Positions 11,867 through 27,948 of a DNA stretch of 64,000 nucleotides are shown here, piece after piece; position 1 is the stretch's first letter; every line of letters begins with the position of its first letter. The translations under genes and the position numbers were made by a program. Under the pieces are notes generated by a model. That model had not been told where the DNA came from. It saw only the letters and a program-made list of their open reading frames with translations, and did not search any database. Where the stretch lies: positions 1 to 64,000 of the forward strand of contig CBDATR010000043.1 of NCBI GenBank assembly GCA_965200155.1, written 5' to 3'. Source of the stretch: Nitrosopumilaceae archaeon (lineage in GTDB: Archaea; Thermoproteota; Nitrososphaeria; Nitrososphaerales; Nitrosopumilaceae).

Positions 11867-14661
11867 TATAGGTTGCTACTGAGGTCTATCTGCTGATCAG
11901 TACTGATGACGCCCTTGGCGGCAAGTATGTCTATTAGACTCTTTAGGAGATCCTTCTGCTTGTCACTACCTTTATCGCCGGGCGGCCCCGGGGGTCCACG
12001 TATGCCTTTCTCGCCGGGAGGTCCGGATTGCCCTGCCGGTCCACTGGGCCCCTGCTCGCCCTGGGGTCCTGCCGGTCCCGGAGGTCCGCGCTCGCCCTGT
12101 AATCCCTGAACGCCTTGGGGTCCACGTATGCCTTTCTCGCCGGGAGGCCCCTGCTCGCCGGAGGGTCCCTTGGAGCCGGGAGGTCCGGGAGGCCCCTTGT
12201 CTCCGCGCTCGCCTATAGGCCCCTTGTCTCCGGGTATGCCAGGCAACCCAATGGGTCCCTGTTCGCCTTGCGGTCCCTTCTCGCCCTTCTCGCCAGGAGT
12301 GCCTACCGGACCCGGCTCGCCTGCCAGCCCCCGCGGTCCTTGCGGTCCCTGAACGCCCTTCTCGCCGACGGGGCCAGCTGGTCCTCGAGGTCCTGGTATA
12401 CCTGTGGGTCCGCGCTCGCCGGTAGGTCCGCGCTCGCCTATTGGTCCTTTATCGCCTATGGGTCCGGTAACACCACGCTTTCCGGCAAGACCCTTGTCGC
12501 CGGTAGGCCCTTGCGGTCCCTTCTCGCCCTTGTCGCCGGTAGGGCCGGTAACGCCCCGGGCTCCGGCAAGACCCTTGTCGCCGGTAGGCCCTTGCGGTCC
12601 CTTCTCGCCCTTGTCGCCGGTAGGGCCGGTAACGCCCCGGGCTCCGGCAAGACCCTTGTCGCCGGTAGGCCCTTGCGGTCCCTTCTCGCCCTTGTCGCCG
12701 GTAGGCCCAACAGATCCGCGCGCGCCTTGCGGTCCCTTATCTCCATCAGGTCCCTTCTCGCCTTTCTCACCCTTCTCGCCCGCGGGTCCGGTAACACCCC
12801 GTGCTCCTACAGGTCCCTTCTCGCCGGTGAGTCCACGCTCACCGGTAGGTCCCTTCTCACCCGCTGGTCCGGTAACACCACGCTTTCCGGCAAGACCCTT
12901 GTCGCCGGTAGGCCCTTGCGGTCCCTTCTCGCCCTTGTCACCGGTAGGTCCGGTAGCTCCACGCTCACCCGTAGGTCCCTTCTCGCCAGTGGATCCCCGG
13001 ACTCCTTTGTCACCCTTCTCGCCCGCGGGTCCGGTAACACCATGCGCACCCGCAAGTCCCTTGTCACCACGAGGTCCACGCTCACCCGTAGGTCCCTTCT
13101 CACCCTTGTCACCCGTAGGTCCGGTAGCGCCACGCTCACCGGTAGGTCCCTTCTCGCCAGTGGATCCCCGGACTCCTTTGTCACCCTTCTCGCCCGCGGG
13201 TCCGGTAACACCATGCGCACCCACAAGTCCCTTGTCACCACGAGGTCCACGCTCACCCACAAGTCCCTTCTCGCCCTTGTCACCCGTAGGTCCGGTAGCG
13301 CCACGCTCACCCGTAGGTCCCTTCTCGCCCTTGTCACCCGTAGGTCCGGTAGCGCCACGCTCACCCGTAGGTCCCTTCTCGCCCTTGTCACCCGTAGGTC
13401 CGGTAGCGCCACGCTCACCCGTAGGTCCCTTCTCGCCCTTGTCACCCGTAGGTCCGGTAGCGCCACGCTCACCCGTAGGTCCCTTCTCGCCCTTGTCACC
13501 CGTAGGTCCCTTCTCGCCCTTGTCACCCGTAGGTCCGGTAGCGCCACGCTCACCCGTAGGTCCCTTCTCACCAGTGGATCCCCGGATTCCTTTGTCACCC
13601 TTCTCGCCCGCGGGTCCGGTAACACCATGCGCACCCGCAAGTCCCTTGTCACCACGAGGTCCACGCTCACCCGTAGGTCCCTTCTCGCCCTTGTCACCGG
13701 CAGGTCCGGTAGGGCCAGCGGGTCCGGTATTACCCTTGTCACCACGGGGTCCACGCTCACCCACAAGTCCCTTCTCGCCCTTGTCACCGGCAGGTCCGGT
13801 AGGGCCAGCGGGTCCGGTATTACCCTTGTCACCACGAGGTCCACGCTCACCCACAAGTCCCTTCTCGCCCTTGTCACCGGCAGGTCCGGTAGGGCCAGCG
13901 GGTCCCTTGTCACCACGAGGTCCACGCTCACCCACAAGTCCCTTCTCGCCCTTGTCACCGGCAGGTCCGGTAGGGCCAGCGGGTCCCTTGTCACCACGGG
14001 GTCCACGCTCACCCACAAGTCCCTTCTCGCCCTTGTCACCGGCAGGTCCGGTAGGGCCAGCGGGTCCGGTATTACCCTTGTCACCACGGGGTCCACGCTC
14101 ACCCACAAGTCCCTTCTCGCCCTTGTCACCGGCAGGTCCGGTAGGGCCAGCGGGTCCGGTATTACCCTTGTCACCACGGGGTCCACGCTCACCCACAAGT
14201 CCCTTCTCGCCCTTGTCACCGGCCAGGTCCGGTCCACGCTCACCCACAAGTCCCTTCTCGCCCTTGTCACCGGCAGGTCCGGTAGGGCCAGCGGGTCCCT
14301 TGTCACCACGTCCCGGGGCGCCTTTCTGGTAAGCATCACCCGTAAGTCCCCACCCATTATTATTGAGGACTTTGTCAAATACAGAATAGTGCCCAGTAAG
14401 TATATCCAGGGCAATAATCCAGACGCGTTTCAGTGCCAGAATATCTGATGATACAGGATTTGTTGAAGTGCCCAGTGTTACATCAAAAGTGCCGTCGCTT
14501 ACCCTGAGGTGAAAATTATCAGCCCAAAGCGAGGAAAAGCTCCACCCCTTTATGGAATCGGCAGTCGGCTTTTTATCACATATGGCTATGCGTACCTCGT
14601 ATATACCACTACGTGTGATTGGGGCCGGGCCACTTACATTTAGGTGCGCACCATCGGCCAT
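11863..14661 (-). CDS. Collagen-like protein (~790 aa Gly-X-Y) with an N-terminal globular domain
   Basis: Near-continuous G-X-Y triplets rich in GEK/GDK/GER/GPT; short helical C-terminal tail. Confidence 0.93.
12440..14310. repeat. Hierarchical tandem repeats encoding collagen blocks
   Basis: Near-identical 45-, 63- and 72-bp units, e.g. cttctcgcccttgtcacc... Confidence 0.9.
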
Positions 14662-17769: not shown

Positions 17770-19022
17770 TATAGCAGTCACCATAAGTCTTGGCAGTGAT
17801 TTTCCATAAAATATCACAACAGGGATGGCAGACAGGCTAAATCAGCAGATGTAAGTAATGTACCCTACCATACTTTATGGACATGGAATACTTCATGACG
17901 AGTTTAGTGGCGTATAATGACTGTGTACATGTATGGGCCTCCAGAACGATCACGCACAAAAATCCACCACTTATTCCCTGATCAGAGTGGCATGAAATAG
18001 TGTACCAACTACTTTGTAGGTAACCTAGTTTGACCTTTTGTACTATACCGGCCGACACGGATGTGCTTTCCACACCGCCTGCACTTTTTGAACCGTTTTT
18101 TCTGTTTTTGGATCACTGGGTTCCCCCTTGCGTACTGATTCCATGATTGGTAGTATTAATCCATCAGCTGGTTTTCTGTTCCAGAATTTGTTAAAATCAT
18201 AATCGAGCTTATGGCCATCTTTGAAATCATACACTGCCTACTTGTGGTAATTGATATCCGAATATCGTAGGGAGTGATCCATCCCCCTCTTGAGTACGCT
18301 ACAGAATTCCTTGACTGGATTCAGGTATGGATGTCCAACCGGATACTCTATTACGATTATGTCCCGATCAGCAAAGAATTCCTTGGCCTTCCTTGAGGTG
18401 TGCCATGTCCACGAATAGTACCATCTTACCCACCTTGTTATGCATGTGATCCAGGAAATTCTCTGTATCTATGACCGTATAATCATCAAGGAATACCCTA
18501 CCGTCATTAATCATGGTACAGGCCATGGAGAACCAGTATCGCCTGCCGGTCCATGCCATGAGTACGCGCCTGCCTGCAGGGACCCGGAATCGCGCAGATA
18601 ATCTCTCGGTCTTGAAATGGGATTCATCCTGGGTAACAATGGCATAATCCATCTTTATGTAACGTGCAACCTTTTCTGACATTTCTTGCCTCCATTTTTT
18701 CACGTCTTCCATTGAATCACGATTCATGTGGATTGGGGATGACTTTTTGTTGGAGCAACCGGCGAGGTGGACATGGACAACCATGCCGTGGTGATTTCAT
18801 GTGGATTGGGGATGACTTTTTGTTGGAGCAACCCCACTTTTTGGCGTAACGCTTGAACCTGATTTGCGCTCAGCCATATGCCGGATATCTCTTCGAGGTA
18901 ATCTTGTAGTGGTGAATACGTGGCTTGGCGCCCATAAACGGATCCTCTCCAGCTGTTCTCGCTTTCTTTTCGTGGGGCGAGCTGATCTGGGCTTGCCAGT
19001 CTCTGATTCCCGCTGTATCATT
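17770..19022 (-). mobile_element. IS630-family element remnant inserted at a TA in tnpB
   Basis: IVTQDESHF, MVLFVDMA and YPVGHPYLNPVKE DDE motifs; end TATAGCAGTCACCATAAGTC. Confidence 0.82.
18723..18833. repeat. 38-bp perfect direct repeat flanking a 35-bp insert
   Basis: ttcatgtggattggggatgactttttgttggagcaacc at 18723-18760 and 18796-18833. Confidence 0.9.
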
Positions 19023-19114
19023 GTATGAGTTCACGTCTTCCGGAATCTTATGCACAAATCACATTAACTGTCGCGATCAGTTATGCGTAAATTTAGACAC
19101 AGGTGAACTCATAC
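19023..19114. mobile_element. MITE-A copy (92 bp), no TSD
   Basis: TIRs; joins truncated IS630 and truncated IS481 remnants. Confidence 0.9.
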
Positions 19115-19654
19115 GTCTCAGTAATAGAACGGCGTTCTCTGAGGTTGCATGCTCAAATAGTGCCGCTCCGACGATGCACCTGGTTGCATCATCTATGAGA
19201 TTCAGTCCCTTGAAGCGCTCATCTTTCATTACATGCCAGTGCCACATTGCATTGGAATATTTACGCTCATAGCGTACTCACTCTGACTTTGCAGGTGATG
19301 ATCCTGCCGTACCGTTATTTTTCATTATGCGATATACTGAGCAATATATTGTAATTCTGTCTAAGCCTCTTTGCAATACGTACTACTCCTGCGGGATCCT
19401 TGCTGTATGCTTCAGTTACCATTCGTATCTGGGTGGCGGTGATTGGTATCATGGGCCTGCCCATCTTTACTCGAGTCGTTCCCGTTCTCTGGTTCACAAT
19501 CTTCGTACGTGCCTTGTTTCAGGTCTTGAGCTATTTTGGTGGCGGCAACGCCTCTTTTGTCTTGATTCCTCTGTTATTCTCTTTACCATCTAGCTTGTGC
19601 AATCTGAACTACTGTACGCCGGATCCTAAGCGGACTTACTTTTCGTACTATTGA
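19115..19654 (-). mobile_element. IS481-family element copy 3 (partial)
   Basis: Matches the other copies; left end ...gtactattga. Confidence 0.88.
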
Positions 19655-23873: not shown

Positions 23874-24092
23874 ATGAGCGATGATACCATATATGACAGA
23901 GTCTCAACACTAGAGGATAAAATTGCAATCATAGAGAAGCACATAGACACTGACCAGCACGATGTGGCCATATTTCGGGAGCTTGGGGATAAAATTGCAA
24001 TCATAGAGAAGCACATAGACACCCTAATGGACATACACAAGAACCAACTCGCAAAACGTGAAGTTAGGCGAGTCAAGGATGGCAGTTACTAG
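23874..24092 (+). CDS. Small coiled-coil protein with an internal duplication
   Basis: DKIAIIEKHIDT occurs twice; TTTTTAAA box upstream. Confidence 0.5.
   Translation: MSDDTIYDRVSTLEDKIAIIEKHIDTDQHDVAIFRELGDKIAIIEKHIDTLMDIHKNQLAKREVRRVKDGSY
23915..24022. repeat. 36-bp perfect direct repeat flanking a 36-bp insert
   Basis: ggataaaattgcaatcatagagaagcacatagacac at 23915-23950 and 23987-24022. Confidence 0.9.
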
Positions 24093-27841: not shown

Positions 27842-27948
27842 TGCCGGGGGCGGGTTTCGAACCCGCGACCTCCAGATTATGAGTCTTGCCTATGGAGGAG
27901 GGGTTAACGCCCCAAGCTGGCACTCTAACCAGGCTGAGCTACCCCGGC
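27842..27948 (-). tRNA. tRNA-Met(CAU), probably elongator, with a 32-nt non-canonical intron (~27885-27916)
   Basis: GCCGGGG acceptor stem, D arm GCTC/GAGT, T arm GCGGG-TTCGAAA-CCCGC; anticodon arm CCAGA-CTCATAA-TCTGG forms only after removing 32 nt from the 5' strand. Confidence 0.9.

Follow-up and report, generated by a model that had tools for sequence, protein, structure and literature searches.

The stretch of 64,000 nucleotides (nt) considered here, called the window below, comprises positions 1-64000 of contig C43 in a draft genome of 2.38 Mb (51 contigs, 87.6% complete) of a Nitrosopumilaceae archaeon. The genome encodes archaeal AmoA (E = 1.7e-115), and the sequencing runs holding most of the sampled words of the stretch belong to two studies, one of them on a sponge metagenome, so the organism is regarded as a sponge-associated ammonia-oxidising archaeon. 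The subject of this work is a scar in the window composed of a repeat, an insert and a second copy of the repeat, situated in the remains of a transposase gene related to the insertion sequence (IS) IS630, and its relation to CRISPR spacer acquisition. The locus consists of the following parts:

18046-19025, minus strand: degenerate IS630-like transposase relic carrying the scar, in pieces in three frames
18723-18760, no strand: duplicated target, copy 1, a maximal exact match of 38 nt
18761-18795, no strand: inserted spacer-like DNA, measuring 35 nt when the repeats are taken as maximal and 36-37 nt for a duplication of 36-37 nt
18796-18833, no strand: duplicated target, copy 2, from the repeat search; paralogues have a single copy

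The pieces of the relic lie on the minus strand at 18873-19025, 18798-18869, 18368-18784, 18241-18396 and 18046-18237, and its best family matches stay below threshold, with NF033545 IS630 transposase at E = 2.5e-5 and 23.9 bits (curated cut-off 100) and DDE_3 at E = 0.0023 and 18.2 bits (cut-off 28.6), the gene being broken into several frames. In a repeat search of the window the two 38-nt copies were 100% identical and started 73 nt apart, with 35 unrelated base pairs (bp) between them, and on re-reading the sequence every letter of the perfect duplication described in the original prediction was found to be exact. A match of 38/38 at a spacing of 73 cannot be due to chance, the genome background (at least 32 of 36 identical bases) being only 0-5 loci for each spacing outside the peak described below.

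Several copies of the IS630-like relic, 94-99% identical, were detected in the genome by BLAST. In an alignment of six copies those on contigs C13, C23 and C10 cover both flanks with one 38-mer and nothing at the position of the insert, while the copies on C31 and C34 are cut off on the left by other elements. The three paralogues with a single 38-mer imply that the window copy gained 73 bp, made up of foreign DNA and a target duplication, and they bear out the expectation that removal of the insert and one repeat restores the older sequence. The accompanying claim that the insertion frameshifted a transposase has to be abandoned: the C13 paralogue, free of the insert, shares with the window copy both a stop codon shortly upstream of the insertion site and a downstream frame change, so the insertion landed in an already dead gene, and this would explain its tolerance. 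The IS region is missing in 19 of 20 relatives searched and gave one weak partial match (E = 1.5e-9, genome G005) in the other, therefore no orthologous empty site is available for the scar. A contig from an RNA run (X3) that skips exactly 73 bp was considered as an empty allele and rejected, since five other differences on its left side mark it as a paralogue and not this locus.

The scar is one of many. The 2.38-Mb genome was scanned outside its CRISPR array for short non-tandem stretches that repeat themselves, with 32 or more of 36 bases the same, at a distance d of 40-140, and 5, 32, 17, 10 and 6 loci (70 in sum) were obtained at d = 71, 72, 73, 74 and 75 respectively, with 0-5 and mostly 0-2 loci at every other spacing. 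A genome-wide peak in spacing, named beforehand as a check on the idea of spacer integration, is thus present at 71-75, in agreement with the periods of the array itself. In curation seven of 72 loci (C32:787, C32:797, C38:1674, C40:6595, C33:4575, C29:837 and C10:347796), and likewise C2:5217, were dropped because they lie in tandem-repeat tracts or on small contigs of low guanine-cytosine (GC) content, with 3-4 mismatches and inserts resembling the repeat; five exact pairs overlooked by the fuzzy scan were added. The curated set comprises 70 scars; their inserts represent 63 distinct sequences and their duplicated targets 50, the latter unrelated to one another. The two repeat copies are free of mismatches in 49 of the 63 events, and in these the exact repeat length is 34 nt in one, 35 in one, 36 in 17, 37 in 20, 38 in four, 39 in three and 40 in three. 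The locus at 18723-18833 (repeat 38, insert 35, period 73) falls within this distribution, and the window holds another member of the set:

23915-24022, no strand: second scar in the window, a 36-nt repeat (23915-23950 and 23987-24022) around a 36-nt insert

The insert of this second scar is identical at 36/36 positions to C10:28035-28070 of the same genome.

The dimensions of the scars are those of the resident CRISPR-Cas system. Contig C9 carries an array of 289 repeats of 36 nt, whose spacers measure 34 nt (1), 35 (16), 36 (85), 37 (101), 38 (63), 39 (15) and 40 (4), with three longer ones; the resulting periods are 71 (16), 72 (85), 73 (101), 74 (63) and 75 (15), of which 73, the period of the scar, is the commonest. 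The insert of 35-37 nt lies in the range of 35-39 nt that includes 280 of the 288 array spacers, and the maximal match of 38 nt stands beside a resident repeat of 36 nt and the 41 scars with identical copies of 36 to 38 nt counted above. Degeneration of the repeats marks the far end of the array, and the leader is accordingly placed beside cas2. Upstream of the array two adaptation genes follow each other (by Pfam; coordinates converted):

C9:68770-70419: Cas4/Cas1 fusion, 549 amino acids (aa), Cas4 and Cas1 in one open reading frame (ORF)
C9:70569-70844: Cas2

The fusion contains the single Cas1 match in the whole genome and aligns over its full length with the solved Cas4/Cas1 fusion 7mi4 (E = 1.1e-147). 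Downstream of the array Pfam identified Cas3 (helicase and HD), a GSU0054-family protein and a GSU0053-family protein; we take GSU0053 to be Cas7-like and GSU0054 to be Cas5/6-like. A 319-aa ORF beside these effector genes has no Pfam match and, by its position, may be the large subunit, the only expected part of type I-G left without Pfam support. The gene set on C9 is otherwise that of type I-G, formerly I-U. The concern that the lineage might lack cas1 is thereby answered, the genome having one Cas1, as a Cas4/Cas1 fusion, with cas2, the 289-repeat array and type I-G effector genes.

A source for the inserted DNA could be traced in a considerable part of the events. At 31 of the 70 loci the 22-mer core of the insert has an exact match elsewhere in the genome; after seven loci had been set aside in which the insert recurs only in further copies of that scar, a genomic source remained for 24 events (of 63 distinct inserts), mostly identical over the whole insert, and BLAST gives a few further sources at 94-97% identity. 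Among the array spacers only 2 of 288 match the genome outside the array, one of these matches being an ectopic insert that overlaps the spacer. The enzyme thus seems often to capture self DNA; self-targeting spacers would be purged from the expressed array and harmless at ectopic sites, where the effector presumably cannot use the flanking "repeats". The trinucleotide TTN (or NAA on the other side) occurs at the source boundary in 10 of the 24 events versus 2-7 in 27 shifted controls. In a studied I-U system the protospacer adjacent motif (PAM) is TTN, most spacers measure 36 bp and TTN accompanies about 50% of the unique naive ones (PMC6547450).

For the insert at 18761-18795 the search for a source in host, viral and metagenome contigs, which the original prediction had proposed, gave no match. 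With the 111-nt scar as BLAST query no match longer than 16 nt over the insert was found in the genome, no blastn-short match was obtained there at E ≤ 0.01, and the 22-mer core has no exact match in it; the insert is also absent from viral_contigs and metagenome_contigs, where exact 35-mers were compared and a diverged source would escape. It is possible that a self source lies in the unassembled part of the genome.

Two side observations concern the sources. The ectopic insert at C25:4760-4868 and array spacer 58 (C9:75221-75246) share 26-28 identical nt and derive from overlapping stretches of one source. Contig C10 (540 kb, 23% of the assembly) supplied 14 of the 24 self-derived inserts (binomial p = 1.8e-4); its source sites are spread over the whole contig and integration sites are not enriched on it, and the excess could reflect a separate replicon, a higher copy number or more breaks.

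The duplicated targets bear little resemblance to a CRISPR repeat. At 18723 the unit agrees with the resident repeat at 12 of 36 positions (own count), random sites averaging 11.4, so that the likeness to CRISPR repeat ends once ascribed to it does not exceed chance, and the leader-repeat junction and resident repeat of a canonical array unit do not occur at 18723-18833; the resident repeat was found only in the C9 array and as one degenerate copy at C43:128228. Over all targets the identity with the resident repeat is 12.76/36 against 11.41/36 at random sites (Mann-Whitney p = 1e-5), and an orientation-and-offset search gave a weak motif (T3, C5, C11-12) which coincides with the repeat and has an information of 8.78, compared with 6.5-7.0 in 10 nulls.

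Integration is nevertheless non-random. Repeated DNA holds 17 of the 50 targets and unique DNA 33, and the same 36-nt register was struck independently in different copies of repeated elements. Four different inserts occupy one register of a repeated element of about 540 bp (a 36-mer with 69 genomic copies), where uniform integration would predict about 0.002 events (own arithmetic), and at least six different inserts occupy one register of an IS66-family transposase gene. One copy of the element of about 540 bp lies in the window at 19115-19654; it has dozens of copies of 88-97% identity and holds two hot-spot registers of ectopic integration. Between it and the IS630 relic, and abutting the latter, there is a sequence of about 92 bp (19023-19114) with perfect 12-nt terminal inverted repeats; it looks like a miniature inverted-repeat transposable element (MITE), has very many genomic copies and reaches in public runs a contig depth about 1000 times that of its flanks.

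The IS66 register, near the 5' end of the ORF, is found at 66 loci, of which 51 have one copy of the 36-nt unit, eight have two, six have three and one has four (examples are C24:500845-501097, C10:83012-83120 and C24:460667-460774). In these small arrays an old spacer is common to many copies and newer, unique spacers lie toward one flank, the most diverged repeat being at the opposite end, as in a polar, growing array. Another ectopic mini-array, with three repeats and two spacers (C9:70400-70587), sits exactly at the junction of cas4/cas1 and cas2. Its duplicated 37-mer includes both the stop codon (TAG) of cas4/cas1 and the ATG from which cas2 likely starts (own reading), hence both genes stay intact and are now 148 bp further apart. 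Both of its spacers are copies of chromosomal sites (C10:291117- and C24:421310-).

Two genomes of the same family were used as controls. The first, G057, is of another genus (1.86 Mb in one contig, 63% GC) and has one Cas1, in a Cas4/Cas1 fusion 59% identical to that of the present genome, with an array of 135 repeats of 36 nt, related in sequence to the repeat described above. It contains about 26 singleton scars at d = 70-74, with repeats of 36-39 nt and inserts of 31-38 nt, seven of them with a source elsewhere in G057; these 26 were picked by eye, and 58 hits at d = 75 and six at d = 72 were left out as 25-residue protein repeats. The phenomenon is therefore not private to the genome of the window. 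Scars at 66285, 94384, 463591/463664, 1478675 and 1664037 are examples from G057, and a two-spacer mini-array is included among its scars. The second control, G063, lacks any Cas1 match at a completeness of 99%; the scan covered 800 kb of its 1.23 Mb, where no loci occur at d = 71, 73 or 74, two occur at d = 72 and one at d = 75, and all hits are at multiples of 3. Seven further loci with Cas4/Cas1 relatives of 38-51% identity were found in genome_contigs; they belong to unrelated phyla and have no bearing on the scars.

The scar is also present in separate assemblies of public reads. The Logan contigs of runs X1 and X2 each include a 95-nt contig equal to 18731-18825 with 0 differences, which covers the insert, 30 nt of each repeat copy and both junctions. 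An artefact of the deposited assembly, against which the original prediction had cautioned, is ruled out by these contigs. Run X4, from a different study, has no contig cover over 18760-18783 and says nothing either way.

On this evidence it can be said, with a probability of roughly 90%, that the scar at 18723-18833 is a natural off-target spacer integration outside the array, and the inference of off-target Cas1-Cas2 activity made in the original prediction is supported, none of the checks on cas1, on the spacing peak and on artefacts having told against it. Judged by gene content, the responsible enzyme would be the organism's own type I-G Cas4/Cas1-Cas2. This complex, loaded with a prespacer of about 36-37 bp, would have attacked the two strands of the IS630-like relic at points some 36-37 bp distant from each other, with the same ruler that it applies across a 36-nt CRISPR repeat, and gap filling would then have duplicated the stretch between the points of attack, leaving repeat, spacer and repeat. 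The true duplication is probably 36-37 nt long, extended by one or two chance matches, and not 38.

Several points weigh against this interpretation. The repeat measures 38 nt and not 36, which needs two chance matches (about 0.1, own arithmetic) or a 37-nt stagger with one. No protospacer, and hence no PAM, was found for the insert at 18761-18795, the target at 18723 is no more repeat-like than random DNA, and no leader-like sequence was identified at this scar. The weak target motif was not reproduced at the 26 sites of G057 (information 13.7, null 12.4-15.7; repeat identity p = 0.2). The side on which the PAM lies and the orientation indicated by the motif are at odds in about half of the cases compared by eye, and in one mini-array TTN lies on one side of the first spacer (C9:70400) and on the other side of the second (C9:70477), a conflict that may reflect random orientation or chance PAM calls. 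One cas1-positive and one cas1-negative relative make a thin sample, the direction being as predicted. Finally, the support from X1 and X2 consists of contigs of one study, maybe of the source sample itself, which are neither raw reads nor independent evidence from a population.

A further step would be to regard the locus as a functional nascent mini-array, transcribed and used in defence or regulation. Other ectopic sites have indeed grown to two or three spacers, and the repeated strikes on the 36-nt site of IS66 point the same way. At 18723-18833 there is a single spacer, so the structure is better described as a scar than as the nascent mini-array which had been offered as an option; the effector must recognise the resident repeat, which the repeat of the scar does not resemble, and no insert-specific RNA was seen, the contig of the RNA run that lacks 73 bp being a paralogue. 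A functional role is accordingly unlikely, and the scar is presumably inert, without processing into CRISPR RNA.

It is very unlikely that the scar arose by repair unrelated to CRISPR, in which a staggered nick or break with overhangs of 36-38 nt was filled and rejoined with captured filler DNA. Such an origin would suit an insert without identifiable source or PAM and a target that resembles ordinary DNA, but repair offers no reason for a fixed stagger of 36-37 nt and fillers of 35-39 nt at about 60 sites, in lengths that match the array, nor for the presence of scars in a second cas1-positive genome and their absence from a cas1-negative one.

IS and MITE copies abound in the genome, and an origin from an unrecognised mobile element, or from another integrase with very long target-site duplications, also has to be considered. 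A transposable element would bring its own sequence, with defined ends, to different sites, whereas the 63 inserts in the 70 loci are all different, share no termini or core and were in 24 cases copied from scattered chromosomal places; the seven recurrences of an insert lie in copies of elements that transposed after the integration event. There is, moreover, a single Cas1-family match in the genome, and the IS families present here are not known to make target duplications of 36-38 bp, which makes this explanation most improbable. An assembly or sequencing artefact, conceivable in an incomplete 51-contig draft rich in repeats that confuse assemblers, is practically negligible, as the separate Logan assembly of two runs has the insert and its junctions without differences and an artefact would yield neither 70 loci with the geometry of the array nor in-frame insertions of 24 residues with duplicated peptides.

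These in-frame insertions are found where scars lie in long open frames: a duplicated 12-residue peptide flanks about 12 new residues, giving an insertion of 24 residues in all. Examples are an IS66 transposase, a 599-aa secreted-looking protein on C22, a HEAT-repeat protein (C43:105484-106287) and a nucleotidyltransferase on C10. A frameshifting scar breaks an Mrr-type restriction endonuclease, and another replaces the last residues of an amidohydrolase (C10:229607). The orthologues of this amidohydrolase, a unique gene, in three genomes of the same genus end with a single copy of the peptide duplicated at C10:229607, hence the duplication is derived; at the DNA level no empty site was recovered there, the same-genus BLAST matches, of about 70% identity, stopping short of the scar. 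Periods that keep the frame occur in 33 of 63 scars versus 102 of 288 array spacers (Fisher p = 0.015). When scars were sorted by eye the in-frame share was similar at sites in long ORFs (about 11/19) and at other sites (about 22/44), and a slightly shorter mean insert explains the excess equally.

Events of this class are known. In Escherichia coli overproducing Cas1-Cas2, off-target spacer integration and neo-CRISPR arrays have been reported (Nivala, Shipman and Church 2018, Nat Microbiol), and, as citing papers describe them, the common features are a spacer-sized insert outside the array, a target duplication of repeat length and sites of which some seed arrays. The present case differs in being natural, without overexpression, in an archaeon with a type I-G fusion, and in its extent of about 63 fixed events with about 26 in a relative. 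Evidence from nature had until now been called 'circumstantial' and concerned two other species, according to a citing preprint (10.1101/148544). The I-U/I-G module of Geobacter sulfurreducens (PMC6547450; 7mi4) resembles the present one in the fused Cas4/Cas1, in spacers of about 36 bp and in TTN at roughly half of unique sources (10/24 here); the difference is that integration here takes place away from a leader-repeat junction and duplicates a sequence other than a CRISPR repeat. Self DNA accounts for at least 24 of the 63 ectopic inserts, while about 70% of unique spacers in G. sulfurreducens came from a plasmid, according to the same report (PMC6547450). The 'ectopic' acquisition of Streptococcus thermophilus (PMC7999890, PMC5338259) also places spacers away from the leader-proximal repeat, but the spacer there, as those sources describe it, adjoins a genuine repeat in the array and here it adjoins unrelated chromosomal DNA. 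With the target-site duplications of transposable elements the scars have in common that a direct duplication of the target flanks inserted DNA; unlike them, the duplications here are of 36-38 bp and the short, non-autonomous inserts all differ from each other. The unusual features are the natural setting, the archaeal host, the type I-G fusion integrase and the number of events. In the full-text literature searched no natural genome with many such events was reported, and none for archaea or type I-G, a search mostly outside subscription papers and thus no proof of absence.

Beyond the single locus, we lean towards the broader view that the type I-G Cas4/Cas1-Cas2 of this family of ammonia-oxidisers is naturally promiscuous, keeping a largely unselected, genome-wide ledger of captures with much self DNA (at least 24/63 versus 2/288), and being at once a mutagen and a natural origin of new arrays. 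Spacers taken from self DNA would persist only where no guide is expressed from them. If this is true, the activity of Cas4/Cas1-Cas2 is a mutagen that causes frameshifts and 24-residue in-frame insertions, and CRISPR adaptation becomes a source of gene insertions, which is relevant for annotation since the scars resemble odd partial duplications of 72-75 bp. Natural array birth would be represented by the IS66 site, struck at least six times and grown to four repeats, giving direct examples of a new CRISPR array born from ordinary DNA. The inserts would be a record of what native adaptation captures before selection removes self-targeting spacers, and the target rules and the 36-37-bp ruler could be read from dozens of sites used in nature, among which are strong hot spots.

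Some minor observations concern the rest of the assembly and of the window. About two dozen small contigs (C2-C4, C6, C8, C11, C14-C18, C21, C26-C29, C32, C33, C38-C40, C44, C45, C47 and C49) have a GC content of 35-42%, compared with 45-51% in the large ones; they bear none of the curated scars and may come from another organism or a mobile element. A tandem-repeat block at 12481-14274 of the window has periods of 81, 54 and 90 bp, all multiples of 3, and probably encodes a repetitive protein. The only Rfam match in the window is a transfer RNA on the minus strand at 27842-27948, which at 107 nt against a model of 71 positions probably carries an intron.

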